Source: an uncultured delta proteobacterium
GTDB lineage: Bacteria; Desulfobacterota; Binatia; Binatales; Binataceae
DNA: 64,000 nt
Direction of reading: 5' to 3'
Assembly: GCA_963721485.1 (NCBI GenBank)
Contig: CAVRJV010000014.1
Location: 72,443 to 136,442, forward strand
The position numbers and the translations under genes were made by a program. Below the pieces are notes generated by a model. The model was not told where the DNA came from, made no database searches, and saw only the letters and a program-made list of their open reading frames with translations. Positions 11,384 to 34,347 of the stretch are shown here, piece by piece; the stretch's first letter is position 1; the number at the start of each line of letters is the position of its first letter.

Positions 11384-12970
11384 ATGCCGAAGCTTACTAT
11401 CGACGGCAAGGAAGTTGAGGCTGGCGCCAACCTGAACGTAATTCAGGCGGCCGAACTCGTCGGCGTCGAGATTCCGCACTACTGCTACCATCCCGGCCTG
11501 ACCATCGTCGGCAACTGCCGGATGTGCCTGGTCGAAATCGAAAAAGCGCCCAAGCTGCAAATCGCCTGCAACACGCGCGTCGCCGAGGGGATGGTCGTCC
11601 ACACCAAGAGCGACAAGGCCAAGGCTGCGCAGAAGGCGGTGCTCGAATTTCTGCTGATCAACCATCCGATCGATTGTCCGGTTTGCGATCAGGCCGGCGA
11701 GTGCAAGCTGCAAGACTACTACATGGATTACGATCAGCAGCCGTCGCGCTTTCCTCTGCCCGAGAAAAACCGCAAGGGCAAGGCGATCGACATCGGCTCG
11801 GGCGTGATGCTCGATCAGGAGCGATGCATCCTGTGCGCGCGATGCACGCGCTTCTTCGACGAAGTGACCAAGACTTCGGAGCTCGCGATTTTCGAGCGCG
11901 GCGATCACAACCGCATCGACATCAATCCCGGCCAGCCGGTCAACAATAAGTATGCGGGCAACGTCGTCGACATCTGTCCGGTCGGCGCGCTCACCGAAAA
12001 AGAATTCCGCTTCCGGATGCGCGTGTGGTACCTGCATCGCACGGCGTCGGTCTGCGGCGGATGCGAGCGCGGATGCGCGATCGACATCCATCACCATCGC
12101 GGACGCATCTACCGCTTCAAGCCGCGCTACAACCCGACCGTCAACAGCTACTGGATGTGCGACGAGGGCCGTCACAGCTTTCCCGCACTGCAGAACGAGA
12201 CGCGGCTCACTTCGCCGCTCGTGCAGGCGAAGGATCAGCTCGTGGTCGAGCCGTGGGGCGAAGGCGTGCGGCGCGCGGCGTCGATAATCGCGGACTACAA
12301 GCGCAGTTACGGCCCCAACTCGATCGCGGCGGTCATCGACGCCACCTCCACTAACGAGGAGGCGTTCGCGCTCAAGCAGTTCATGAAGAGCGCGATCGGA
12401 TCGGACAGAATCGCGACGCTCAGCTGGTCGCCGCCGGGCGTCAGCGGCGATGACGACCTACTGATCCGAGCCAACAAGAATCCCAACACGCGCGGACTCG
12501 CAGCGCTTGGTCTTTCAGCCGACGGACTCGACGGTCTCGCGTCGGCGGTCGCGTCAGGCGAGCTCAAGATGCTCATTTCCTTCCGCGCCGACCTGGTTCG
12601 CGCAATCGGTGAAGAAGAATTCGTCCGGCGCTTCGGCGCGCTCGACTACCTGCTCGTGCTATCGACCGACGCCAACGAGACTTGCCAGATGGCCAACCAG
12701 GTGTGGCCAATCGCAGCGTATCCGGAAATCGACGGCAGCTTCACGAACTTCCAGGGCCGCGTGCAGCTAATCCAGGCCGCGTTCCCGCCGCCGGGAAACG
12801 CAATCGCCGGCATCGAGGCAATCGCGCGGCTAGGCCACGCCCTCGACGGCATCGATCGTCCGCATACAGCGGGCGCCGTCTTCGCCGCGATGTCCATCGC
12901 CGAGCCCGCCTTCAAAAGCCTCAGCCTGGCAACCCTCGGCGAGCACGGCGCCGATCTGGCCGCCAGCTAA
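11384..12970 (+). CDS. nuoG: NADH-quinone oxidoreductase subunit G (short, 528 aa)
   Basis: IPHYCYHPGL, GNCRMCLVE, HPIDCPVCDQAGECKLQD, CILCARCTRF, CGGCERGC. Confidence 0.93.
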   Translation: MPKLTIDGKEVEAGANLNVIQAAELVGVEIPHYCYHPGLTIVGNCRMCLVEIEKAPKLQIACNTRVAEGMVVHTKSDKAKAAQKAVLEFLLINHPIDCPVCDQAGECKLQDYYMDYDQQPSRFPLPEKNRKGKAIDIGSGVMLDQERCILCARCTRFFDEVTKTSELAIFERGDHNRIDINPGQPVNNKYAGNVVDICPVGALTEKEFRFRMRVWYLHRTASVCGGCERGCAIDIHHHRGRIYRFKPRYNPTVNSYWMCDEGRHSFPALQNETRLTSPLVQAKDQLVVEPWGEGVRRAASIIADYKRSYGPNSIAAVIDATSTNEEAFALKQFMKSAIGSDRIATLSWSPPGVSGDDDLLIRANKNPNTRGLAALGLSADGLDGLASAVASGELKMLISFRADLVRAIGEEEFVRRFGALDYLLVLSTDANETCQMANQVWPIAAYPEIDGSFTNFQGRVQLIQAAFPPPGNAIAGIEAIARLGHALDGIDRPHTAGAVFAAMSIAEPAFKSLSLATLGEHGADLAAS

Positions 12971-12997
12971 ACACGCTTTTCTGTCTGCGTCTGGGTT

Positions 12998-13020
12998 GCC
13001 CTCTCTAATCAGGGAGAGGC
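12998..13020. terminator. Imperfect hairpin between convergent genes
   Basis: GCCCTCTCT-aatc-AGGGAGAGGC between the nuoG stop and the convergent stop at 13026. Confidence 0.4.
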
Positions 13021-13025
13021 GAAGA

Positions 13026-13778
13026 TCAGCCAGCGTGGCAGTTGAAGCGGAAGCTCGATTTGCCATTTTTTATTTGCGCGATTCGACCTTTAATCTTTGG
13101 CGCGATCGGGACGGCTGGGAATGCGTCGACGAATGCTTGCAGTCCCGCGGCGGTCTTGTCGGCGTTCTCGCAGGTGCAGATTCCTGACGCCAGTTCCGAT
13201 TCGAGGCTGTCGATCTCGCCCTGCGCCTCGGCTGCGTAGTCGTCGGGATACATCGTGCGGAACGTCAGCCAGCCGCGGTAGAGATCGACCATCAGCTTGC
13301 CGTCGAAGCGCGTGCATCCCGATTCCTCGGTCTGCTGTTTGATGTAGGCCGGGAACGGGCCGTTGCCGTCGGGCTCAGTACGCGAGTAAATCGCGAAGAA
13401 GGCAACGTCCGCCCTGCTGCCCTGCTTGCGCGCGAGACTTTTGAAGTAATCGACACTCGGGCGTACGACGATAGGTTCCTGCCGCACGACCATGAATCCC
13501 TGCATCTCGCGCTGGACCTGCTGATACTGCGATTCGGTGAGTTCCGGAAGCAGCGCTTGCAGTTCGGGACTGGCCTTCATGCCGGCTTCGAAGACCGGCT
13601 CGATAGGACTCTTGCCGCGCGTGCTGCACAAGTCGTCCATCGCCGCCGAATAATCTCTCACCGACACGGGCATTTCAACATCGGCCGCGTTCGCCTGAAT
13701 CGCGAAGCATGCAATCGCAACGGCGATCGCAAATCGCGCGGATAGCAGGGCGGCAAATCGGTTGATCGAGACTTGCAA
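13026..13778 (-). CDS. Hypothetical secreted protein (several Cys)
   Basis: Signal peptide ...IAVAIACFAIQANA-AD followed by ~220 aa of globular sequence; start codon uncertain. Confidence 0.7.
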   Translation of the reverse strand: MQVSINRFAALLSARFAIAVAIACFAIQANAADVEMPVSVRDYSAAMDDLCSTRGKSPIEPVFEAGMKASPELQALLPELTESQYQQVQREMQGFMVVRQEPIVVRPSVDYFKSLARKQGSRADVAFFAIYSRTEPDGNGPFPAYIKQQTEESGCTRFDGKLMVDLYRGWLTFRTMYPDDYAAEAQGEIDSLESELASGICTCENADKTAAGLQAFVDAFPAVPIAPKIKGRIAQIKNGKSSFRFNCHAG

Positions 13779-13837
13779 GCGGCTTCGATCGCTAGCATCG
13801 CGATCGCATCGCGCGCAAGCATGGCCGCGCCAATACG

Positions 13838-17484: not shown

Positions 17485-18642
17485 TCAGCCGCGCAGCGCC
17501 GCCTCGAAGTCTTCGATCAAGTCGTCGCTCGATTCGAGACCAACGGACAGACGCACCAGCCCGTCGCCGATTCCTGCCCGCGCGCGCTCAGCCGCCGACA
17601 TTCCTGAGTGCGAAGTCGTCGACGGGCGCGTGATCAGGGTCTCGACGCCGCCGAGGCTCGGCGCGCTGATTGGTATCGTCACGCGATCCATGAAACTCTG
17701 CGCCGCGTCGAGGCCGCCCTCCAACTCGAAACTCAGCACGCCGCCGAAGCCGTCGAACAGCTCGCATGCGCGGAGATGATTCGGGTGGCTTTCGAGTCCG
17801 GGATAGTTCACCCGCGCGACCGCGGCGTGCTGCTCGAGCCATCGCGCGATCTTGAGCGCGCTTTCGTTCTGATGGCGTACGCGCACGCCGAGCGTCTTCA
17901 TCCCGCGATGCAGCAGGAAGCATGCGTGCGGATCGAGCGTGCCGCCGAGATGGTTCAGCGTATGCGTGATGCTTTCGACCAGGTCCGCGCGCCCGATCAC
18001 TGCGCCCGCCACGATGTCGCTGTGGCCGTTGAGGTACTTGGTGCCGCTGTGAAGCGAGAGGTCGAAGCCGATTTCCGCGGGCCGAAAATTAATCGGGCTC
18101 GCGAAAGTATTGTCGATGATCGAGACGAGCCCGTTCTCGGCCGCGAAATCCACGGCCGCTTGCAAGTCGCTCACCTGCAGCAGCGGATTCGACATCGACT
18201 CGACGTAGATGGCCTTGGTGTTGGGACGAATCGCCTCGCGCCACGTGGCGGGCTCGTCGCCGTCGATGAAATCCACCGACAACCCCAGGCGCGGAAACTC
18301 CTCGACGAACAGATCGTGCGTGCCGCCATATACGCAGTCCTGCGCGAGCAGATGCCCACCGCCGGCCAGCACGGTGAGCAGCGCCGCCGATATCGCCGCC
18401 ATCCCGCTGCCCGCGACCAGCGCAGCCTCCGCATTCTCGAGCGCCGCCAGCTTGGCGTGCAGCACCGCGTGATTGGGCGTGTTGTTGAGCCGGATGTAGC
18501 GCAGGTCGTGGTAGTTGGTCTGCCCGGCGTACTCGAAGGTCGAGGATTGGAAGATCGGCATCGAGACCGCGCCGCCGATCAGCGGCTCCGGTTCGCCGGC
18601 ATGAATGAGCTTGGTGTCGAGTCCTTTGATAAGTCGGGCCAT
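17485..18642 (-). CDS. PLP-dependent Cys/Met metabolism enzyme (cystathionine gamma-synthase/lyase family)
   Basis: PIFQSSTF, GSGMAAI, DNTFASP, HSGTKYLNGHSD (PLP Lys), SLGGVETL, RLSVGLE. Confidence 0.93.
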   Translation of the reverse strand: MARLIKGLDTKLIHAGEPEPLIGGAVSMPIFQSSTFEYAGQTNYHDLRYIRLNNTPNHAVLHAKLAALENAEAALVAGSGMAAISAALLTVLAGGGHLLAQDCVYGGTHDLFVEEFPRLGLSVDFIDGDEPATWREAIRPNTKAIYVESMSNPLLQVSDLQAAVDFAAENGLVSIIDNTFASPINFRPAEIGFDLSLHSGTKYLNGHSDIVAGAVIGRADLVESITHTLNHLGGTLDPHACFLLHRGMKTLGVRVRHQNESALKIARWLEQHAAVARVNYPGLESHPNHLRACELFDGFGGVLSFELEGGLDAAQSFMDRVTIPISAPSLGGVETLITRPSTTSHSGMSAAERARAGIGDGLVRLSVGLESSDDLIEDFEAALRG

Positions 18643-18660
18643 GCGACGACATTTATCACT

Positions 18661-18685
18661 CGGCGCGTCAAGGAAAATAGGGCGC
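18661..18685 (-). repeat. Direct repeat A: displaced copy of the membrane-protein gene 3' end (APYFP-stop)
   Basis: cggcgcgtcaaggaaaatagggcgc vs cggtgcgtcagggaaaataggtcgc at 21372-21396, 22/25 identical. Confidence 0.75.
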
Positions 18686-19144
18686 CCGCTCGATTCGCGA
18701 CGGCAAGTCACGCTGTCAAACGTTGTTCTGAATTGAGATTTGGAGTTTGGTTGAGATATTTTCTTTTCTTCCGTTTCCGCAATCAGTTGAGAGCGGTCGA
18801 GTGAAGGAAAGCGGTGCGGGAGAGATCTGATCTGCGATCCGGCGTGTTCACGGGTGGGACGGAACGATGACGGCGAATTGGTGGAGTTCGGCTGCTGGTA
18901 GGGGAGTGGGCTGGTGGGTGTGAGAGGTGAAGTCATTCCGCATATTATGGCATGGCTGGGTGACAACGGTTGTCATGGCCGCTGCCGTACGGCCGAAGTC
19001 GGCTTGATCGCCTTCAGTAGGCGCAGGAGCAATTATTTTCATTTTTTATCTGTTCTTGGATGCGCGATTGCTTTGCCGCCTTCCGAATCGAAACCACTGT
19101 GGCTGCAACTGTCCCGGCGCCAGCGCGCTCGGTGTGCAATGCCG

Positions 19145-20242
19145 TCACGGCAACGGACGCTTCTTCATATCGTTGATCGCTTCCATCAGGTTGACGGTGT
19201 CGTTCACGTCCAGCGTATCGCCGCTGTAGCGAAGCTCAAGAAGCCCTTGCAGATTTGATGGGAGTTTTACTCCTTGCTTCACAATGAGGATAAAGCGACT
19301 CCCATATAGCGCCATGGCCGCACCTATCTCGATAAGAACATCGTCGTTGAGGACGATATGTTCGTTGCCCTCACTATCTACAAGGTGGCGCTCGTCCTCG
19401 ACATGAATGATAGCCGACCCGCACGACCGCATCTCTTCCATAACTTTGGAAGGAACCGGCTGGGAGACAGTCTGTATCTGAACAGATACCACCGCCTCCA
19501 ACTCGCCGAAGGCAAGCAGCTTCTTGACCGGTTCGATAAGCCCTTTGTTTTTGCCGTGGGTTATGAAGACTCTTCTGGCCCGGCCATCTACTACGGGCGC
19601 GGAAGGTAGGGCAGCACCGTTCTTTGTTGATGCGGTCGATTGTTCGTCAGTGTCCTTGTTCGATTCGGGTTCGGCCGGCTCGCTTCCATTCGAGTCGGGA
19701 GTTGTCGTACCGCTGAGGTCTACGTATTTGCGCCCCTTGATTTCTTGTAAGAATCCAACCGCTTCAGCGCCTTCGACTATAAGCTTCAGGACCTCGGCAG
19801 TTCGCTCTCGAGGCACACCGAACTCCATTAGAACATTCTCTCCAATTGAGTCCCTCGGCAGTGAAGCGTTGTCGTATTTCTTGAGAAACTCTCGGATCAC
19901 GCGTGGCCGCAGGAGTGCCTCGCGTTTTGCGGCCTTATCGTCTCCTTCGGTAGTTGGTCTGACTATTCGCATTCCCAGCGAGGAGATTGAGATGGTGTCG
20001 GCATTATAACCTCCTGTTGTTAACCCGTACGCTATCGATGCACCGGTCAACATCCTGAACCCACTGGAGGTCGGTTGTACCTCCAATGCTCTTGCGACTT
20101 GCAACGGCGCAGTCGGCTTGTATCCGTAGTTCTCTCCTATCGATGCGGGCACCCGAATCGCTCTCTTAAGTGAACAGCTCGGAATGTCCACTTGACTGAC
20201 ATACGTTCGCAACTTTTCTACTTTCTTCTTGTCCTTTGGCAT
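19145..20242 (-). CDS. TIR-like nucleotide-binding domain protein (CAP12/Pycsar TIR-like C-terminus) with a helical N-terminal domain
   Basis: RRVFITHGKN...LNDDVLIEIGAAMAL...KLPSNLQG matches the TIR-like family pattern; acidic disordered linker. Confidence 0.82.
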   Translation of the reverse strand: MPKDKKKVEKLRTYVSQVDIPSCSLKRAIRVPASIGENYGYKPTAPLQVARALEVQPTSSGFRMLTGASIAYGLTTGGYNADTISISSLGMRIVRPTTEGDDKAAKREALLRPRVIREFLKKYDNASLPRDSIGENVLMEFGVPRERTAEVLKLIVEGAEAVGFLQEIKGRKYVDLSGTTTPDSNGSEPAEPESNKDTDEQSTASTKNGAALPSAPVVDGRARRVFITHGKNKGLIEPVKKLLAFGELEAVVSVQIQTVSQPVPSKVMEEMRSCGSAIIHVEDERHLVDSEGNEHIVLNDDVLIEIGAAMALYGSRFILIVKQGVKLPSNLQGLLELRYSGDTLDVNDTVNLMEAINDMKKRPLP

Positions 20243-20287
20243 CTGCACTCCGCGGCAGTTTACCCGAATCGACTGCTAGTTCAGTCA

Positions 20288-20316
20288 AATGTAGTCGGAT
20301 TCTGACGCTTGCGCAA
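20288..20316 (-). promoter_or_regulatory. Putative sigma70 promoter of the TIR gene
   Basis: Minus strand TTGCGC-N17-TACATT, ~45 bp upstream of the ATG; TTGCGCAA palindrome overlaps the -35. Confidence 0.55.
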
Positions 20317-20831
20317 TAGGCTCTATTTCCGAGATAAATTAGGTCGCAAGAGCGACAATCCGTATCGCGTGAGGGTAAGTTGTGGCCCACCGTTTCGCAA
20401 TCGCCTACCCGTATCCGGTCGTCGGTGTACGCCGTAGAGATGCGAGCTTGAGCCGAGTCGGCTGGCGCGACTAAGCGCGGGATACACTTCATCAGGCCGA
20501 CCTCGGCGTCGCCCTGAGGACCCGTGTTTGAGACCTTTACGAAGTCCCTCCACTTACGCTTCAAACAGTACAACTCAAACACTAGGGTGAAGTCGCGCTT
20601 TGCTTTCGGTGCAACATTGGGGTATCTGGTGCCGCAACGGTACCTTTGGTTTGTGCTCAGCGTAGTCCAAAAGTCGCAAGAGGTGCTGATCCCGAGCAGA
20701 AGAAATGAGAGTAGTCCGGATTCGTTGTTCCCCTCTTCGACCCCGGTTGAACCGCGATACGGATTTCCATTGTTGAACGCGATCTGATCCTCGCTTTGCT
20801 TCAGTCGCGCAACAAATCGAGGAGCAAGAGT

Positions 20832-20860
20832 TTGCCGGCCGTCAATAAATCTGTTAACTT
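20832..20860 (+). promoter_or_regulatory. Putative sigma70 promoter with extended -10 for the small secreted protein
   Basis: TTGCCG-N17-TAACTT with upstream TG; RBS GGAGGA at 20879. Confidence 0.55.
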
Positions 20861-20889
20861 CCAGTGAAATTCGCATTTGGAGGATATCG

Positions 20890-21159
20890 ATGAAAACGAT
20901 CGTATACGCTCTATTATTGGTGGCGTGGGTCGGAGCTACCAACGCATGGGCTCAACAGCACGATCCGAATCCGAATAAAGACCCAGAAGTGCAGCAGGGT
21001 TACGACGAAAATCAAGAGCAGCATCGCCAGAAAGATACGACCGAGACTTACACGGTTCATAAAACAGGCGAGGGGCACGGCGGCATTCCCGACAGCGGAA
21101 ACTACGATCCTCCGAAGACGAAGGATGATTCCCAAGAGAAGAAAGATAACCCCAATTAA
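20890..21159 (+). CDS. Small secreted, acidic, probably disordered protein (89 aa)
   Basis: Signal peptide MKTIVYALLLVAWVGATNAWA, strong RBS and promoter. Confidence 0.75.
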   Translation: MKTIVYALLLVAWVGATNAWAQQHDPNPNKDPEVQQGYDENQEQHRQKDTTETYTVHKTGEGHGGIPDSGNYDPPKTKDDSQEKKDNPN

Positions 21160-21160
21160 G

Positions 21161-21226
21161 AAACCGTCGGCCGTCGCAATCGACAGTTCGGGCCACGTCT
21201 GGGTGACAAACTTCGGCAACGGTAAG
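21161..21226 (+). pseudogene. NHL/beta-propeller repeat remnant
   Basis: Translates to KPSAVAIDSSGHVWVTNFGNGK, with no start codon. Confidence 0.6.
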
Positions 21227-21338
21227 CGCGCAGGTTTGTGGACGACGTAACGCGTCTGGTCGTCCGGTCTCTGCGAACGTCGTGATCTGATGACCAGCGC
21301 GCGAGCCGCTCTCTACGCCATCACATTCTGGTGACCTA

Positions 21339-21362
21339 GTGGGGCGGGCCGCCGTGCCCGCC
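21339..21362. repeat. REP-like GC hairpin preceded by GTGG at the islet edge
   Basis: GTGG-GGCGGGC-cgccgt-GCCCGCC. Confidence 0.45.
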
Positions 21363-21371
21363 GCCGACATC

Positions 21372-21396
21372 CGGTGCGTCAGGGAAAATAGGTCGC
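21372..21396 (-). repeat. Direct repeat B: current 3' end of the membrane-protein gene (ATYFP-stop)
   Basis: Partner of 18661-18685. Confidence 0.75.
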
Positions 21397-22938
21397 TGCT
21401 GGAGTGCCGTTGGGGGCGGCGACGTTGCCAACTACGGGCGCCACGCCGGGGAGCGCGGCGCGGCCGAAGAGGGCTGCGGTTTGATCGCTGTATAGTAGAT
21501 GCCAGCGCGGGTCTTTTCTGACGAGGTCGGCGCCCTTGGTATCCACGCCCATCAGGATGTAGTCGTGGGGATAGGCGTCGAGGAGTTGTTCCGAGCCGGG
21601 CATGCCGTAGAAGAATTTCGCGTAGTCGCCTTCCTGCTTGTCTGAATAGACCAGTTCGCCGCGCGGATCGATATAAACCTTGAACGCGTCGGATGCGTGC
21701 CAGAGGATGTACGAGCCCCATTCGAATTGCGGCAGGATGTTGCCGTGAAGTTTGCGATCCTGCATGAAGGCGAGCGCGCCCGCCGGCATCGGCTTCCAGG
21801 TTTTCAGGCGATTCGAGAAAGCTCCACCGACGAGTGCGAGAGCGACCGCGCAGATTGCGAGCAGCGCTGCGGGCGGTTCGCGATCGACGACGGGTTCGCG
21901 GGCGGCACGTCGAGCGACCGCGAGGCTCGCATGGCGGGCTAGCGGAATGGCGACGGCGATCACGCCGACCGCGACGTTGCGGGCGGCATAGAAAGCGGCG
22001 GCGATAAAGATTGCGGCGACTGCTGTCATCGGTGCGTCGTCGAGGTCGGGGGCGAGCGCGACCGCCGCGACAAATCCGGCGAACATCAGCATCGGCGCAA
22101 CGTACTGGAGCAACTCCTTCGGGTCGGTGCGCCAATTCGAGAGCATCATTGTAGTTAGCGGCACCCAGTCGGCGATGACCTGCCGGATGAGTGGGTCGCC
22201 GACCGAATGCGCGACGCCGGTCCAGAGGCCGATGCCGAAGGGATTGATGAGAGTAGCGAGCGCGCATCCGAATGTGATCAATGCGAGCTTCCATGCAGAG
22301 GACAGGCGGCCGGCGTCGCCGAACCATCCCAAGGCGAACATGACCGCGGTGGCGATACCCATCGCGCCGAGGCCGACGATGTAGCCGCCGTGAAGGTTTG
22401 CCCACAATGTGAACATCGGGAGCAGCGGCCACAGCGTCGCGTCGCGGCGGTAGACCTCGAGCGCGAGCGCCATCATGATGACGGCGATCATCATGAAGGT
22501 GAAGAGCTGCGGCCGAAATTGCATCTGGGTCGAGATGGCGACGGCGCTGAGAATCAGCGTGAGGCGTTGCACTCGCGGCGTCGCGTCACTGCAGGAAATG
22601 CCGATCGCCAATGCGACTATCAGGATGCTCGAGCAGATCAGCTTCAGCAGCTTGAGACCGAAGACGCCGAGATGCGCGTAGAAGAAGGCGAGCGCCACCT
22701 GCGACAGCCATTCGTGATTGTGCCAGGGCATGTTGGCGGCGGCGTAAGAGTAGGTGTCGAAGCGCGGGATGTGTCCGGTGCGCAGCGTGGTCGCGCCGGT
22801 GAGCATGTGGATCCAGAGATCCGGCTCGGCGAAGTTGTCGGCCGTGGCGAGCGCGATCGACAGGATCACCGTCCATCGCGAGGCCGAGAGCAGCGAATAG
22901 CGTGGCAGCTCAGGCTGCTGCAAGTCGCGCGAGACTCC
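21379..22938 (-). CDS. Polytopic membrane protein, possibly GT-C-like (start approximate)
   Basis: EPDLWIH...G, NHEWLSQV, RPQLFTF, LWANLHGG, many TM segments, C-terminal soluble domain (YIDPR). Confidence 0.75.
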   Translation of the reverse strand, partial: GVSRDLQQPELPRYSLLSASRWTVILSIALATADNFAEPDLWIHMLTGATTLRTGHIPRFDTYSYAAANMPWHNHEWLSQVALAFFYAHLGVFGLKLLKLICSSILIVALAIGISCSDATPRVQRLTLILSAVAISTQMQFRPQLFTFMMIAVIMMALALEVYRRDATLWPLLPMFTLWANLHGGYIVGLGAMGIATAVMFALGWFGDAGRLSSAWKLALITFGCALATLINPFGIGLWTGVAHSVGDPLIRQVIADWVPLTTMMLSNWRTDPKELLQYVAPMLMFAGFVAAVALAPDLDDAPMTAVAAIFIAAAFYAARNVAVGVIAVAIPLARHASLAVARRAAREPVVDREPPAALLAICAVALALVGGAFSNRLKTWKPMPAGALAFMQDRKLHGNILPQFEWGSYILWHASDAFKVYIDPRGELVYSDKQEGDYAKFFYGMPGSEQLLDAYPHDYILMGVDTKGADLVRKDPRWHLLYSDQTAALFGRAALPGVAPVVGNVAAPNGTPAATYFP

Positions 22939-23893
22939 GCGGTCGCATCGCCGCTTGCACGATCGGAATGGAAACAACCAGAATCGAGGCGCCCGCTATC
23001 ACATCGACAAAGTAATGATGCCCCGCGAAGGGAGTAGCTATCAGCATTAGTACATTCACAATCGCAACAGGCAGAAAGGTTCGCAGCGGCGGCCGATGTA
23101 CATACACCAGCAGAATAGCCATTACGGCATGGCACGACGGAAACGCTACGATACCGTTCAGGTCGGCCAGCGTGAATTTCGTCAAAGTGCCGTTGCGGAT
23201 CGATACGAGCACCGCCGACCACGTTGGCATCCCTCCGATTGTGTAAGGCCCAAGAGCCGGAAAAGGACCAGACAGAGTTACTGAAACCAGCATCGCGAAC
23301 ATTCCAATCCACAGCAGTTCGCGGTTTCGGTCGCTGCGCTTGATCAACGCGAAATATCCGATCGACGTGAAAACCTCGATCATCATGCTGTTGTAACAAT
23401 GTTCGAGCGTGTATCGGATCAACCATCTCGAGGTAGTGATCCAGTCGTAGTCCGCGCTCCAGTTGAGTCCGAGCGCCGCATCCATCCGCGCAAACTGGAC
23501 GTCCCGCAGCGGCATCCGAAGCGTCGCCACCACGTAACTGTAGATGACAAGCGCGACCGCGAACGCGATCCACAGCGCACAGTAGTGCGCCGCCTCGGCC
23601 ACCTGCCGCGCGCGTCCCGTGAACTCGACCAGGAAGCCGAACGCCGCGAACACCGCGACTCCCTTTACCGCGGGCATGAGTCCGCCAATGTCGAAGCCCG
23701 CGTGCCTTGCCCAAAGCCAGTCCGTCGCGGCAAGGATCAGGATGACTGCCCATGCTCTCAGTATGTAGTCGCGCTCGTCGAGAAATTTCGACGAGCGCGC
23801 GTTCGTGGTGACAGGATTGCGCGGCGCTTGTGCGAGCGCCTCCGAATGGCCCGCAACGGGCATCGACGAATCGATATCGATACTTTTGTCCAA
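22910..23893 (-). CDS. PAP2-family (PAP2_3/IPC-synthase-like) membrane phosphotransferase/phosphatase
   Basis: FPALGP, AFPSCHA, GHHYFVDVIAG catalytic motifs. Confidence 0.85.
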   Translation of the reverse strand: MDKSIDIDSSMPVAGHSEALAQAPRNPVTTNARSSKFLDERDYILRAWAVILILAATDWLWARHAGFDIGGLMPAVKGVAVFAAFGFLVEFTGRARQVAEAAHYCALWIAFAVALVIYSYVVATLRMPLRDVQFARMDAALGLNWSADYDWITTSRWLIRYTLEHCYNSMMIEVFTSIGYFALIKRSDRNRELLWIGMFAMLVSVTLSGPFPALGPYTIGGMPTWSAVLVSIRNGTLTKFTLADLNGIVAFPSCHAVMAILLVYVHRPPLRTFLPVAIVNVLMLIATPFAGHHYFVDVIAGASILVVSIPIVQAAMRPRSLARLAAA

Positions 23894-24081: not shown

Positions 24082-25231
24082 GTGAAAGCTCTCGTAATCG
24101 GCGGCGGTATAATCGGCAGCGCAGTCGCATGGCGCCTTGCCTCGGAAGGGGTCCAGGTCACTGTCTTCGAGCGTGGGCGGCTCGGGCAGGAAGCGTCGTG
24201 GGCGGCGGCCGGATTAATCGGGCCGCAAGCCGAGGCGCATGAGCCGGGCGCGTTCTTCGACCTTGCGCTCGCAGGCAAGCGCGTCTTTCGACTGCGATAG
24301 TCGATCGTCTCACATTGGAGAGCGGCGTCGATCCTGAGTACGATCAACACGGCGTACTCTACGTTGCGTTCGACGACGCAGCCCGCGCCGAGTTGCAGTC
24401 GCGTGCGCGATGGCAGCGCGCGGCCGGCGGCGAGGTCGAGGAGTTGTCGCCGCGCGAGGCATTCAAGCTCGGCGCCGGTGCTGTCGGAAAAAATTATTTT
24501 CGCGCTGCATATGCCCAACAACCGGCGCGTCGAAAATCGCAAATTGACACTTGCCTATATCAACGCCGCTACCAACGCCGGCGCCGAGTTCCGCGAAGGG
24601 CGCCCGCATCGAATTCGATCGCAGTCAGCGGCGGGCGCGCGACCGGGCTGCGGATGGCGGATGGCGCGATAGAAACGCGGCGACGTCATCATCAACGCGG
24701 CCGGCGCGTGGGCCGGAGATATTCGCGGGCTCGAAGAGGATCGCATCCATGTCTACCCGGTGCGCGGGCAAATCTTTGCTTCGACGCGCGCCCGGGGCTG
24801 GTCGGCCCGTCGCTGTTTCTCGAATCGCCGGAATATTGGTGCCGCGGCGCGACGGGCGAATCCTGGCCGGCTCGATATTCGAGGAAGCGGGCTTCAACAA
24901 GTCGGTCACAATCGACGGGATGGAACGAATCCTGCGCGCGGTGCGCGCGATGGTGCCGTCGATCGCGTCGATACCATTTCGCGAAGCGTGGGCCGGACTG
25001 CGACCCGCCAGCGACGACCTGCTGCCGGTGCTCGGGCCGTCGCCGACGGTCGCCAACGTGATGTACGCGGCCGGACACTTTCGCAGCGGAATCCTGTTGT
25101 CGGCGTTAACGGGAGAAGTGATCGCCGACCTGGTCAAAGGCCGCACGCCGTCGATCGATCTCGCGCCGTTTTCGCCCGCCCGCTTCCGCAACGGCACGGC
25201 GCACGCGGTCAAACTCGCCGACATGATATGA
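24082..25231 (+). CDS. thiO: Glycine oxidase (frameshifted)
   Basis: IGGGIIG, EASWAAAGLI, YPVRGQI, AWAGLRP, GHFRSGILLS. Confidence 0.88.
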
Positions 25232-25639: not shown

Positions 25640-26444
25640 ATGCGGATTGCGCAACGCGGTCGGGCCCGCTGACTACGCTGGAGAAGGTCATTCTCGCGCT
25701 CGTGATGACGTGGGCAGCGGGCTTCGTCGATCTGGTCGGCTTCGTCTCGCTCTACGGGCTGTACACCTCGAACATGACCGGCAACACGGTCGGGATGGCG
25801 CGTCAGATATCGCGAGCTGGACTTGGCCGGCGTCGTGCGGCATGGATGGCCGATTGTGACGTTCGTCTTCGGCCTGATGCTGGGGTCGTTCATCTACGAA
25901 GCGGAGAAGCGGCGCAGAATCCAGGTCCCGTTTCCGCCGGCGATCGGTCTCGAGGCGCTGCTGATCGGCATCTTCATCGCGGCGGCGAATCGGGAGCCAT
26001 TTCAAAGCCGAGATTCCGCCGCAGCCGGCCGGCAAATTTTTCGTGATGGTCGCGTTGCTCGCGGTTGCCATGGGCATCCAGAACGTGGTCATCAGAAAGG
26101 TCGGCGGCATCAACGTGTACACAACGTTCGTGACCGGAACGCTGGTGAAGTTCGCCGAGAGCCTGTCGGAGTATCTGTTCTGGCTGCGCGATCGAACCCG
26201 CGGCCGGTTCCGCTCTCGCATCCTCAAAGTGCTCCGGATTTCGCCGCGCATCGCCGCGCTCCAGCAGGCCTCGCTGACATTCGGGTCTGTGGATGCAATC
26301 TACCTGACAGGCGCGGTAAGCGGCGGATTTTCGATCCAGCGATTCGCCCTGCTTGGGATGCTTGCGCCGTTCGCGCTGCTGGCGGCGATCGCGCTGTACG
26401 GGGCGTTCCGCCCGTTCTTCGCACTGTCGAGCAAAGAGTGGTGA
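25640..26444 (+). CDS. YoaK/DUF1275 membrane protein (frameshifted)
   Basis: AGFVDLVGF, SNMTGNT, AMGIQN, TTFVTGT. Confidence 0.85.
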
Positions 26445-26483
26445 AATTTTTTTCCACCCTCGCGCGCGGGTATATATTTTTCC

Positions 26484-29400
26484 ATGCCCACCGCGCTCGA
26501 CGACTTCCATCCTGCGGTTCGCGCCTGGTTCGAGCGGCGCTTCGAGGCGCCGTCGCGCGCGCAGGAGCTCGGATGGCCTGTTATCGGCGCCGCCAACGCC
26601 GCGGGCTTCGACGTGCTGCTGTGCGCGCCGACCGGCAGCGGCAAGACGCTCGCCGCGTTCATGTGGGCGATCAACGGCCTCGTGCTCGATGCCGCGAGCG
26701 ACCGATCTTCGCGACGAAGTCTCGGTGCTGTATGTTTCGCCGCTGAAGGCGCTGGCCAACGACATCCGCCTCAATCTCGAGGAGCCGCTGCAAGGCGTGC
26801 GCGACGTCGGCGCCGAGACGGGCCTCGATCTTTCGCGCATCCGCGCCGGCCTGCGCACCGGCGACACGTCGGCCAGCGAGCGCACGCGCGATGCTGCGGC
26901 GGCCGCCGCATATTCTGGTCACGACGCCGGAGTCGCTGTTCATCCTGCTGACCTCGCCGAGGTTCCGCGAGAAGCTCGCCGCCGTGCGCCACGTGATCGT
27001 CGATGAGTTCCACGCGCTGGCCGGCAACAAGCGCGGCGCCCATCTGGCGCTGACGCTGGAGCGGCTTGAGCGCATGGTGACGAGCCGCGGGAATGCGCGG
27101 CCGAATCGAATCGGACTGTCGGCGACGCTGAATCCGATCGAAAAGCTGGCGGGGTTTCTGGCCGGCGATGATGTCGCGCGCGACGGCACACGCGATCGCC
27201 GCGGCCGGTGAAAATAGTTCGCGCCGACGATCGTGTGCGCGACGATGGATCTGCAGGTGATCGCGCCCGGGTCCGGAGCTGGGGCCGCTCGCGACCCATC
27301 CGCATTGGGAAGCGATGTACGACGAGGTCGCGCGAGCTGATCGGCGAGCATCGCACGACGCTGGTCTTCACGCTGAGCCGCCGCACGGCCGAGCGGGTCG
27401 CGCTGAATCTGCAGAAGCGGCTCGGCACGGACGCGGTGATGGCGCATCATGGGAGCCTCGCGCGCAGCCGAGCGCTTGCTGGCCGAGCAGCGCCTCAAGC
27501 GCGGCGAGCTGAAGGCGATCGTCGCGACCGCGTCACTCGAACTCGGCATCGACGTTGGCGCGGTCGAGCTCGGTCTGCCAGCTCGATTCGCCGAAATCGA
27601 TCTCGGCCGCGATTCAGCGGATCGGCCGCTCGGGCCACAGCCTCGGCGCGACGCCGAAGGGGCGCTTCTTCGCGCTGACGACCGACGATCTGCTCGAATG
27701 CGGCGCGGCGGTGCGCGCGATTCGCGCCGGGCATCTCGACGAAGTGGAAATTCCGACGGGATGCGTCGACATCGCGGCGCAGCAAATCGTCGCGATCGCC
27801 GCCGAGGAAGACGAAATCTCGGAGGCCGAGCTGCTGCGCTTGCTCCGCAGCGCGTACAACTTCGGCGATCTCGACGCGGCCAAACTGCGGCATCTGCTCG
27901 AACAGATGGCCGCCGAGATACCCCGAACGAATCATGGGTGCGGCGCCGAAAATCTTTTTCGATCGCGTCGACGCGCGCGTCCGCCCGCGCCGGTCCGCGC
28001 GGATCTGTCGGCGATCACCTCGGGCGGAACGATTCCCGAAGCCGGCAACTACGACGTCGTGATCGAGTCGGAGGGCCGCAAGATCGGCGACGTCGAGGAG
28101 GACTTCGCGCAGGAGTCGTCGCGCGGCGACGTGTTCTCGCTCGGCTCGATGCCGTGGCAGATCCAGCGAATCTCGCGCGGGCGCCTGATGGTCGAGCCGG
28201 CGCCCGGGATGGCGCCGACGCTGCCGTTCTGGCAGACCGAGGCGGGCGGCCGATCGCCGGCGCTGTCGGCGGAAATCTGCGAGCTGCGTCACGAGATCTG
28301 GAACCGCCTCGAGCGCAACGAAGCGCCCGAAGAATGGCTGATGACCGAATGCGCGATGAGCGAGCGCGCGGCGACGCAGGCCGCCGACTACGTGCGCCGC
28401 GGGGTCGAGGCGCTCGGCGCGATTCCCGACGAGAAGACGGTGGTCGTCGAGCGCTTCTTCGACGGCCTCGGCGGCACGCAAATCGTCATCCACACGCCGT
28501 TCGGAATTCGGCTCAATCGCGGGCTGGGGCTCGCGATTCGCAAGCGCCTGTGCCAGTCGTTCGATTTCGAAATCCAGGCCTCGGCGATCGACGACGGCGT
28601 GCTGCTCGCGCTGAACTCGCGCCACAGCTTTCCGCTCGAGAGTCTCTTCAGCGTGCTGAGGTCGCGCAATGCGCGCGACGTGCTGATCCAGGCGTTGCTG
28701 GCGGCGCCGATGTTCGAAGTGCGCTTTCGCCATGTCGCGACGCGCGCGCTCGCCGTGATGCGTTCGTCGCGCGGCAAGCAGCGTGCCGGCCTGGATTCAG
28801 CGACTGCGCTCGCAGGAACTGTTGGCGTCGATTTTCCCCGGCCAGCAGGCATGCTTCGAGAACCGGCCGGGCGCAATCGAGCTGCCCGATCATTTTGTCG
28901 TCGACGAGACGATTCGCGAATGCCTCGAGGAGTCGACCGACCTGCCGCGCACGGTACGGCTGCTCGAAGGAATCGAGAGCGGGGCGATTCGTACCGTCGC
29001 CGTCGACGGGATCGCGCCGTCGGTGTTTGCGCATCGCCTGCTGCTCGCGTGGGATTACTCGTTCCTCGACGACGGCGAGCGCGCCAATCGCCGATCGCGC
29101 ACGGTCACGATGAATCGCGGGATGGCCGAGGACGTGTTCCGCAAGGAGGACCTGTCGGATCTGCTCTCGGCGGACGCCGTCGAGAGCGTCGTCGCAGAAG
29201 TGACGGGGCGCGCGGCCGGACGCAAGCCACGATCGCGCGACGAGCTGTACGAACTGATTCGCGCGCATGGATCGATGACGCTGGCCGAGGTCGAAGAGCG
29301 GGCGGGCGACGGCGCGCGCGCGATGATCGCGGAGCTGGATGCCGAGGGCAGAATCGCGCGCGTCGCGCTGAATGGCGAATCAGTTGAGAGAATCATCGCG

Positions 29401-30963
29401 AACGAGGATCAACCGATCTTCGATGCGGCATATACGAAAGTCGGTGACGCCGATGCGGCGCGGGCCGAACTCGTGCGGCGCGCGATGAAGACTTGCGGGC
29501 CGACAACTGCCGTCGAGATTGCGGCGCGATTGCATTTGAAAGAGTCGGATATCGTGCAGAGTCTCGCGGCGTTGGAAGGGCAGGGCGCAATTTTTCAAGG
29601 CCACTTCACGCGCTCGGACACGGTCCAGTGGTGCGACCGCTACAACCTTGAGCGGATACATCGAATGACGCTGGCGCGCGTGCGGGCAGAGATCGAGCCG
29701 TGCGCCGATCACGAGTACGCGGCATTTCGGCTGCGATGGATGCACGTCGGCGGCACCGAGCTTCAGGCCGATCAGACAGGAGTCGCTGCAGTGCTCGAGC
29801 AGCTTTCAGGAATCGCGGCGACGCCCGAGATTTGGGAGCATGCGATTCTGCCGGCGCGAATTGCGGGCTATCGGCCCGAGATGCTCGACCTCGTATGCAT
29901 GAGCGGGCAGATGAAGTGGGTCGCGTTACCCGGTGAGACGGTCGAAAGCGCGCCCGCGGCGAACATTCCGTCGCGCGTAACGTTCGTACCTCGCAAGGCG
30001 CAACCTGTTTGTTCCGCGCAACGATGCCGCCACCGAAACTGCGAAAGAGCAAGCGGTGCGGGAGGCTCTGGGAGCCGCCGGCGCGCAATATCTTGACGAG
30101 CTTGCGGAGCGCGCGAACGTTTCCGAGCGCGACGCGCTGTCGGCGCTGTGGCGGATGGCGGCGGCGGGGCGCGTCAGCAACGACAACTTTGCGCCGCTCA
30201 GGATGTTCGCCGACGACCGCGGCGCAGAGCGCGCGCTCGAATCCGTCGCGCGCCGCCCATCGACTCGCCACACGCCGCGGTCCGCGCGCGCCTGAAGTCG
30301 AGTCTCGCCGGCCGCTGGTCGCTGATCCAGACAAGTGAAGGCGCCGACGACGCGCGGGAACTCGCGCTCAAGTTACTCGAACGGCACGGAATTCTCGCGC
30401 GCGAGATGCTCGGCTTCGAATCGACGCATATCTCGTGGAGCGAAATCTCGTTCGAGCTGCGGCGGCTGGAATACGGCGGGACCATTCGCCGCGGATGGTT
30501 CGTGCGATCGCTGTCGGGCGAGCAATACGCGCTGCCCGAAGCCGTCGAGATGCTGCGCGCCGCGCGGAATCTGATCCCCGCGCGCGAAAAGCCGTTAGCG
30601 CTGAGCGCGGTCGATCCTGCCAATCCGTACGGCGTCGTGATTCCCGGATGCGGTATCGCGCGCGAGGCGGGCAACGTCGTGGTGCTGCGCGCCGGCCGCG
30701 TCGTCGCGGGATTCCAGGGACGCGCGATGATCAGCGGCGGCGATGGCGAGGTGGACGACGAGAGTTTCGGCGCGGCGGTCGCGGCGCTGATGACGCTGAA
30801 GCCACGTATCGCGATCGATTCGATCGACGGCGTGGCTGCGCTCGAATCGCCGCGGGTGGGAATCCTGGCCGCGATGCGGTTCCATTCCGATGGCCGCTCG
30901 CTGATCTTCGACGGCTTGCACGGGCCGGCGCCCTCGCGATCGCGGCAGGCGAACTTAAAGTGA
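26484..30963 (+). CDS. lhr: Large Lhr-family SF2 helicase (multiple frameshifts)
   Basis: [56 protein letters not shown]-terminal RRGWFV...GEQYALP and [10 protein letters not shown]. Confidence 0.92.

Positions 30964-31572: not shown

Positions 31573-34347
<2,775 letters not shown>

Follow-up and report, generated by a model that had tools for sequence, protein, structure and literature searches.

What does a solitary gene for a TIR protein do when neither a signal-producing partner nor a known sensor can be recognized beside it? This question is raised by a gene on the minus strand (19145..20242) of a 64,000 nucleotide stretch of DNA from an uncultured delta proteobacterium (contig CAVRJV010000014.1, positions 72,443 to 136,442), which is called the window in the following. 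An initial annotation, made from the letters and a list of open reading frames (ORFs), had proposed a candidate single-gene anti-phage system. We find that the gene is real, intact and horizontally acquired, and that it encodes an uncharacterized protein of two domains, an N-terminal domain of no described family and a C-terminal TIR domain of the Cap12/PycTIR class, which are joined by an acidic linker. Judged from sequence and structure models, a one-gene immune system is a plausible reading. All characterized TIRs of this class are downstream effectors that depend on a nucleotide signal. A member that acts alone and carries a sensor itself would, if true, show that the class can be coupled directly to pathogen recognition.

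Gene model and TIR domain

The gene forms an uninterrupted ORF on the minus strand (19145..20248), which comprises 367 aa when counted from the GTG at 20248 as in the ORF list; this numbering is used for all residues throughout. Since a GGAG motif (20251-20248) is placed 5 nt upstream of an ATG at 20242, and since close homologs start with M-[AP]-K in the alignment, translation likely begins at this ATG, giving a product of 365 aa and thus an intact protein of the size first proposed. The closest relative in the databases shares 82% identity. At every position that is invariant in the close family, residue 303 apart (see below), the window copy agrees.

The C-terminal domain (residues 223-367; 19148..19582, minus strand) was assigned using Pfam, profile and Foldseek searches. 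PF10137, the CAP12/Pycsar effector TIR domain, matched residues 226-341 with an e-value of 3.9e-16 and 59.6 bits, the curated gathering cut-off being 24.7 bits, and the window protein covered positions 1-117 of the 119 profile positions. When the protein was searched as a single sequence, PycTIR (8jsj) was the sole match in the PDB (E 1e-3), while a 54-member family profile detected Cap12/SfSTING (7un8, E 1.3e-5) and PycTIR (8jsj, E 3e-4). An AlphaFold2 (AF2) model built from the 54-member alignment reached a mean predicted local distance difference test (pLDDT) value of 89.9. Its top Foldseek matches in the PDB were the TIR-STING structures 7un8 and 9lmq (E 2e-5 to 7e-4), followed by MyD88, SARM1 and the CMP N-glycosidase MilB (E 4e-3, template modelling (TM) score to the target 0.56). 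Both the TIR-like nature of the domain and its placement in the Cap12/Pycsar class, as claimed initially, were borne out by the Pfam search and the structure prediction, in which TIR-STING was nearest.

In the profile alignment with SfSTING, residues E307, F228, N301, D303 and N332 of the window protein pair with E84, F6, R78, N80 and D110, respectively. As described for SfSTING, E84 is the catalytic residue, F6 and N80 belong to the NAD+ pocket, and D110 completes the active site of the dimer mate (PMC9402430). Conservation was counted in 23 close relatives (set A1) and in 54 broader relatives (set A2). Glu307 (codon 19328..19330, minus strand), the Glu of the motif VLIEIG, is present in 23/23 A1 and 48/54 A2 sequences, so the residue expected at the catalytic position is indeed kept. 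Taken together, the C-terminal domain is a member of PF10137 with a predicted TIR fold and a presumed catalytic Glu on helix alphaC, for which NAD+-degrading (NADase) activity is predicted.

The full-length relatives without this Glu (P0141, P0171, P0172, P0176, P0205 and P0223) carry M, K, R or Q instead. Most of these divergent proteins score below Pfam detection for PF10137, and the TIR-like domains they carry may have lost activity or taken on another role. A second deviation concerns the window copy itself: residue 303 (codon 19340..19342, minus strand), aligned with N80 of the NAD+ pocket, is Asp, whereas Asn occupies this position in 22/23 A1 and 45/54 A2 sequences and only one further A2 sequence shares the Asp. 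On the alignment, Asn303Asp is a conservative yet unusual change in the predicted substrate pocket, and the window copy may be attenuated by it.

Self-association was predicted for the window protein with a homodimer score of 0.43, the best control scoring 0.00. Of the proteins solved as same-chain pairs 20 of 30 reached this mark, against 1 of 23 among those solved as single chains. Between runs, at least 61% of contacts agreed, and the partner pLDDT was at least 74. All confident contacts fall within the TIR domain (263-274, 287-292, 297-316 including E307, and 330-333). The dimer of the SfSTING TIR runs via alphaC, the CC-loop and the D110-loop (PMC9402430). Since the predicted contacts resemble this solved dimer, the pass of the homodimer prediction may reflect that likeness instead of providing independent evidence.

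N-terminal domain and distribution of the family

The N-terminal domain (approximately residues 14-178; 19715..20209, minus strand) is predicted with high confidence. In full AF2 models its pLDDT is 97-98 over this range, and when folded by itself the domain reached a pLDDT of 95.1 and a predicted TM score (pTM) of 0.86. Both models are consistent with the helical N-terminal domain described at first. The predicted elements are helices at 32-41, 48-54 and 62-73, a strand at 86-88, helices at 90-96, 103-112, 116-124, 133-142 and 147-163, and a hairpin at 167-176. An element order typical of winged helices occurs twice, namely in helices 32-41, 48-54 and 62-73 with strand 86-88, and in helices 133-142 and 147-163 with strands 167-170 and 173-176. 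The domain may therefore be described, tentatively, as two winged-helix-like units.

No Pfam match at E <= 1 and no PADLOC match was found for residues 1-180, and Foldseek gave no match at E <= 1e-3 for the domain model in the PDB or in the viral database BFVD. The strongest of the weak matches are the WH2-WH4 tandem of SelB with SECIS RNA (E 0.029, the best in the PDB and not significant), DtxR/IdeR/MntR, MarR and the recognition domain of FokI; the best match in BFVD was a phage MarR-type protein (E 0.007, not significant). Single members of the N-domain family matched MCM_WH, HTH_IclR or RQC, each at E about 0.05. Of the suggestion that this part is winged helix-turn-helix (wHTH)- or DUF5343-like, the first half stands weakly, through the order of elements and the SelB match, and the second does not: neither the query nor any of 53 N-domain proteins matched DUF5343 (PF17278) at E <= 1, and the sole lead to this family was a language-model feature match at rank 13 with a score of 0.85. 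The N domain thus belongs to no described family. Since it combines a winged-helix-like predicted fold with a net charge of +8, binding of nucleic acids would be a reasonable expectation.

The highest TM scores to the N domain (0.51 and 0.49) were obtained with chain B of PDB entry 3bhw, an uncharacterized protein of Magnetospirillum magneticum. This alignment spans 182 columns at 18% identity with a poor Foldseek e-value of 0.41; going by the models, 3bhw is a candidate for the closest relative of the domain with a solved structure.

The two domains are connected by a variable linker (residues 179-222; 19583..19714, minus strand). Residues 181-222 have a net charge of -6, and disorder is predicted by AF2, with pLDDT < 50 at residues 193-216; length and sequence differ among the aligned relatives. 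The acidic linker reported initially is therefore found again.

A word-seeded search of 5.8 billion proteins yielded at least 4522 relatives with E <= 1e-3, out of 8000 scored candidates. The best 120 matches without exception span the full length (96-100% coverage, 62-82% identity, 363-400 aa) and contain PF10137; relatives are labelled 'predicted nucleotide-binding protein' or 'TIR domain-containing protein' in their sources. Searching with the N domain alone among 1.84 billion cluster representatives gave 1178 hits at E <= 1e-3, 179 of them at E <= 1e-30. In the best 150 of these 1178 representatives, PF10137 follows in 45, and 24 more show only the start of a TIR domain, recognized by motif, in truncated or frameshifted predictions. 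A Ser/Thr kinase replaces the TIR domain in three (P0157, P0161 and P0202, approximately 520 aa), a chimera-like MT-A70 piece is found in one, and a short conserved beta-alpha tail, again recognized by motif, in five. The remaining 73 are fragments, frameshifted tails or divergent forms. Since the N domain occurs with a TIR domain, a kinase or a short tail, it appears from these sequences to be a module paired with at least three different C-terminal parts. Fusions longer than 643 aa (644-2000 aa) were not present among 1380 candidates, which is weak evidence.

In the five proteins with the short tail (P0128, P0165, P0194, P0198 and P0218; 249-280 aa), the N domain and the linker are followed by roughly 35 conserved residues, in which an alternating hydrophobic strand precedes a helix; this tail has no enzymatic domain. 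Another, different tail is found in P0187, P0189 and P0237.

Genomic relatives were collected with two conserved peptides from 185,579 species genomes (one genome per species). The search yielded 157 relatives, which is a lower bound, and the loci of the best 80 (50-68% identity) were used for the analysis of genomic context; as the peptides were those of A1, this set is biased toward close relatives. The 80 loci belong to Acidobacteriota (closest), Pseudomonadota, Verrucomicrobiota, Planctomycetota, Chlorobi (Chlorobium), Nitrospirota, Chloroflexota, Gemmatimonadota, Bacteroidota and others. In 65 of the 70 loci with enough flanking sequence, the GC content of the gene is lower than that of its flanks (median -7.3 points, Wilcoxon p 2.5e-12). 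This low GC content, together with the patchy spread over phyla, points to horizontal transfer and indicates that the two-domain family is horizontally mobile. The family is common in soil phyla, especially in Acidobacteriota, where phage defences are almost unstudied.

Neighbouring genes, known systems and alternatives

An all-against-all BLAST of ORFs of at least 70 aa within 6 kb of the gene in the 80 loci and the window revealed no neighbour common to the loci. When the gene and the ORFs that overlap it are set aside, generic ABC-F ATPases form the largest cluster; they recur in 11 of the 81 loci at varying positions and distances, and a conserved partner gene was rejected. The TIR protein therefore stands alone. 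The same holds for the window, as the initial annotation had stated: Pfam searches of 34 ORFs (3.8 to 33.8 kb) and PADLOC searches of 30 ORFs detected no neighbour of the cyclase, STING, cyclic nucleotide monophosphate (cNMP)-binding or ThsA-like type.

Regions around the relatives were compared with more distant parts of the same loci. For the near set, ORFs were picked greedily by length and the closest two were taken on either side of each relative (299 ORFs of 80 loci, searched with Pfam); the far control was the first ORF more than 7 kb away on each side (116 ORFs). Pfam domains of defence, mobile-element or toxin-antitoxin type, classes assigned by hand after the names were known, occur in 45/299 near ORFs (36 of 80 loci) compared to 4/116 far ORFs (Fisher odds ratio 5.0, p 5.7e-4). 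Among those in the near set are AbiTii, AbiJ, AbiV-HEPN, ThsB/TIR_2, Mrr, GmrSD-HNH, DndB, DruA, Fic, PemK, BrnA and PIN, together with prophage genes, a reverse transcriptase, TnsA, resolvases, phage integrases and transposases of the IS110, IS200 and rve types. PADLOC profiles gave a weaker contrast: counting any match at E <= 1e-8, 17/150 immediate neighbours (of 154) compare to 8/116 distant ORFs (p 0.29). Many of these matches are generic (ABC-F ATPases, a sigma factor, TPR and helix-turn-helix proteins). After removal of generic matches by hand, 10/150 near and 2/116 far ORFs remained (p 0.07), and without an IscS-like DndA/SspA match the counts were 10 and 1 (p 0.03). The ten specific neighbours are AbiTii (L001), ThsB (L017 and L053), PDC-S33 (L019), PDC-S31 (L020), an Mrr-type (type IV) nuclease (L023), a PD-T4-6 kinase (L027), NsnA (L036), PDC-M41B (L038) and SoFic (L054). 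An enrichment is seen with the broad Pfam classes, whereas the difference in unfiltered PADLOC matches is not significant. We conclude that the family resides in variable, mobile regions in which conflict genes are frequent. That it associates specifically with known defence systems is suggested by these counts but not established.

Some individual loci deserve mention. ThsB-type genes adjoin the relative in two unrelated genomes (L053:215-919, PADLOC ThsB E 1e-118; L017:11668-12444), and a TIR_2 gene (L003:12874-13410) lies two genes from the relative in a third. In Gallionella (L074), a gene with a PAPS-reductase domain (12882-13787), a domain also present in the DndC type, and an IscS/DndA-like gene (1426-2574) are located within 9 kb of the relative; this pair may represent a DNA phosphorothioation cluster.

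How does the protein relate to characterized systems? Cap12/SfSTING (7un8) shares the PF10137 TIR domain with the catalytic Glu in alphaC and gives the best profile and structure matches. The predicted contact between TIR domains, through alphaC and a loop equivalent to the D110 loop, resembles that described for SfSTING (PMC9402430). In contrast to SfSTING, the window protein has no STING domain and no CD-NTase gene nearby, its putative winged-helix-like sensor is N-terminal whereas STING is C-terminal in SfSTING, and Asn332 stands where SfSTING has D110. The NCBIfam Cap12 equivalog scored 11.6 bits, with a cut-off of 450. A fusion to STING or SAVED was rejected, as no match was obtained in Pfam, NCBIfam or PADLOC and no Foldseek match to STING or SAVED for the N domain; likewise, no adjacent CD-NTase was detected in the 34 (Pfam) or 30 (PADLOC) window ORFs, nor was one conserved in the 81 loci.

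PycTIR (8jsj), which is activated by cCMP or cUMP, belongs to the same Pfam TIR family, but no cNMP-binding or cyclase domain was found in the window protein or its neighbours. The best PADLOC matches were to PDC-S35 (E 4e-8 to 4e-4), a candidate for single-gene phage defence which likewise has a C-terminal PF10137-like TIR domain; the N-terminal domains of the two differ, and all five profiles matched only via the C-terminal TIR (e.g., 109-237 of 264 for query 185-348). PDCs are a set of 145 candidates predicted by 'guilt by embedding' (10.1101/2024.01.29.577857). Thoeris offers a further comparison, as ThsB is a bacterial TIR protein of defence islands and adjoins relatives in L017 and L053. 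ThsB makes a signal for the effector ThsA. The window protein showed no PF08937 match at E <= 1, and no ThsA-like/SIR2, SLOG or Macro effector occurs among the window ORFs. The protein is not Cap12, PycTIR, ThsB or PDC-S35, because the defining sensors, partner genes or full-length profile matches of these systems were not found. The nearest counterpart in mode of action, and in that respect only, would be SpbK of Bacillus subtilis, which is described as a single-protein TIR NADase that causes abortive infection upon a direct phage-component trigger (PMC12847820). SpbK differs in its TIR family and its N-terminal part, and senses the phage protein YonE. TIR-based single-protein systems are a known kind, and what is new is the undescribed, putative sensor domain.

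In our judgement it is moderately probable that the gene encodes a stand-alone, horizontally mobile one-gene conflict protein, in which an N-terminal sensor or regulator, a linker and a Cap12-class TIR NADase act together. The N domain would bind a trigger, for which some feature of nucleic acids or a different conserved molecule is most likely. Copies bound to the trigger would come together via the alphaC face of their TIR domains, and this assembly would complete the active site as in TIR-STING filaments. The assembled TIR domains would then hydrolyse NAD+, so that the infected cell stops growth before phage release (abortive infection). The disordered acidic linker would tether the basic, winged-helix-like sensor to the TIR domain. 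That the N domain is so strongly conserved speaks for a ligand which is itself conserved (nucleic-acid feature, small molecule or host factor) and against a phage protein under rapid evolution. The domain has neither a Pfam or PADLOC model nor a close solved structure, yet it occurs in > 1000 cluster representatives and also fused to kinases; its ligand, once found, could define a new recognition module. A more far-reaching proposal, which we consider unlikely, is that the N module is a widespread innate-immune sensor serving several effectors, in which direct recognition of invading nucleic acid leads to TIR assembly and NAD+ depletion with no second messenger. If true, this would be a one-protein short-cut of the logic of CBASS and Pycsar.

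Several observations weigh against a conflict protein with its own sensor. Besides the unfiltered PADLOC comparison given above, the catalytic Glu is absent in 6/54 A2 relatives and residue 303 of the window copy departs from the usual Asn. The description of the N domain as winged helices depends on element order and on non-significant Foldseek matches in the PDB and BFVD. Both domains are unusually conserved for a sensor of phage proteins, considering the identities of the top 120 matches. The Pfam-annotated neighbours in the window are of housekeeping type (a hybrid histidine kinase, a Cys/Met pyridoxal phosphate (PLP) enzyme, a membrane protein and a PAP2 protein). PADLOC detected no system closer than approximately 6 kb, where pieces of an Lhr-like helicase give the nearest matches. 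Searches of 50,697 phage and 72,556 plasmid records with tblastn detected no relative. Further, the literature library searched held no characterization of the wHTH-TIR architecture, PDC-S35, PF10137 or COG4271.

Some of these points would suit a protein outside genetic conflict, the alternative which survives best but is still improbable. Here, the substrate of the TIR-like domain would be some nucleotide different from NAD+, as for the related MilB and nucleoside deoxyribosyltransferase-like hydrolases, and the protein would be an enzyme or regulator of nucleotide metabolism controlled by a domain that binds DNA or RNA. The Foldseek match to MilB, the high sequence conservation, the housekeeping neighbours in the window and a database name that reads only 'predicted nucleotide-binding protein' are compatible with such a role. 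However, PF10137 is far stronger than Nuc_deoxyrib_tr, which matched in 1/53 members at E 0.21; at least 157 relatives among the species genomes are scattered over phyla; and the GC content below that of the flanks in 65/70 loci argues for an accessory, transferred gene.

We assign a slightly lower probability to a role in mobile DNA instead of anti-phage defence, as its regulator or as a module of the addiction or toxin type. The winged helix would be a repressor- or partition-like DNA binder, and the TIR domain a toxin stabilizing the island or competing for it. Integrases, transposases, resolvases and toxin-antitoxin genes outnumber classic defence genes among the neighbours, the gene has a foreign composition, and the occurrence of the N domain with non-enzymatic short tails (5/150) would suit a plain DNA-binding protein. 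On the other hand, neither a cognate antitoxin nor any conserved second gene was found in the 81 loci, tblastn detected no copy on sequenced plasmids or phages, and the scanned window ORFs beside the gene include no integrase or transposase.

Less probable again is an orphan effector: a cyclase or TIR of the CBASS, Pycsar or Thoeris type, encoded elsewhere, would supply a small nucleotide signal to the N domain, whereupon the TIR domain would degrade NAD+. All characterized PF10137 TIRs named by the tools (Cap12 and PycTIR) are signal-activated effectors, a very conserved N domain would be expected of a small-molecule pocket, and ThsB-type genes stand beside the gene in L017 and L053, with TIR_2 within two genes in L003. 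Nevertheless, the N domain is unlike STING, SAVED, cNMP-binding and SLOG folds and gives weak winged-helix matches in Foldseek, and no cyclase or other conserved partner was found within 6 kb in the 81 loci. To our knowledge, orphan effectors are usually no more widespread than their signal generators, which also counts against this explanation. An equally low probability is given to the window copy being a decaying or inactive relic, whatever the function of the family: Asp303 in place of the near-invariant Asn aligned with N80, several other window genes split across frames and the lack of a recognizable promoter in the scan speak for decay, but the frame is intact over 365 codons with 82% identity to the closest relative, the other invariant positions are all kept, and Asp for Asn is conservative and shared with one other of the 54 A2 members. 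Should the conflict protein we favour turn out to be non-defensive, the family would be a useful warning against equating every orphan TIR with immunity.

Surroundings of the gene in the window

In the window, the gene is carried by a low-GC islet (19001..21000), as the initial annotation had noted: the two 1-kb windows of this interval have a GC content of 0.537 and 0.523, while values around it are 0.58-0.69. The TIR gene itself has a GC content of 0.529 compared to 0.631 in the rest of the window. The islet is flanked by the genes for the Cys/Met PLP enzyme (17485-18966, minus strand) and the membrane protein (21379-22977, minus strand). The Pfam-scanned ORFs beside the gene contain no integrase or transposase, the window has no tRNA gene that could serve as an integration site, and Rfam detected no RNA family at E <= 1 in 18800-21500.

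The initial annotation had also assigned the gene its own promoter, which was not confirmed as a recognizable site. Between the start codon and 20316 (20249-20316) no sigma-70-like site was found, as far as a consensus scan can tell. In 18900-21400, three sigma-70-like sites compare to 1.5 +/- 1.2 in shuffles; the scans for sigma-70 sites and intrinsic terminators gave nothing convincing beside the gene, with counts no higher than in shuffled sequences. By eye, TTGACT (20288-20283) and TAAACT (20262-20257) can be paired, ending 14 nt before the ATG, but their 20-nt spacer is outside the 16-18 nt spacing and non-canonical. The approximately 640 bp upstream contain no co-directional gene that has relatives, so that a separate promoter is nevertheless inferred from the layout, and the region 20243..20889 (minus strand) must hold it.

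Two further ORFs occur here. A Cys-rich ORF of 258 aa (20166-20942, minus strand) is co-directional and overlaps the first 83 bases of the TIR gene. Its sole match among 5.8 billion proteins is a 100% identical protein of 236 aa from another assembly. As a second component it was rejected, having no Pfam or PADLOC match and no counterpart in the 80 related loci, and it is treated as an ORFan or a spurious ORF. The next ORF upstream, which is divergent from the TIR gene and lies in the islet (89 aa, 20890-21159, plus strand), has no family match; it combines a signal-peptide-like start with a low-complexity, charged body rich in Pro, Asp and Lys.

Finally, three housekeeping genes farther along the window are split into pieces in different frames, namely those for a DAO-family oxidoreductase (24082-25231, two ORF pieces), the Lhr-like helicase (26353-30963, at least four pieces) and an aconitase (31573-33812, three pieces). 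The Lhr pieces match the PADLOC profiles DpdJ and BrxH because these profiles are relatives of Lhr. The split genes are either assembly indel errors or pseudogenes.

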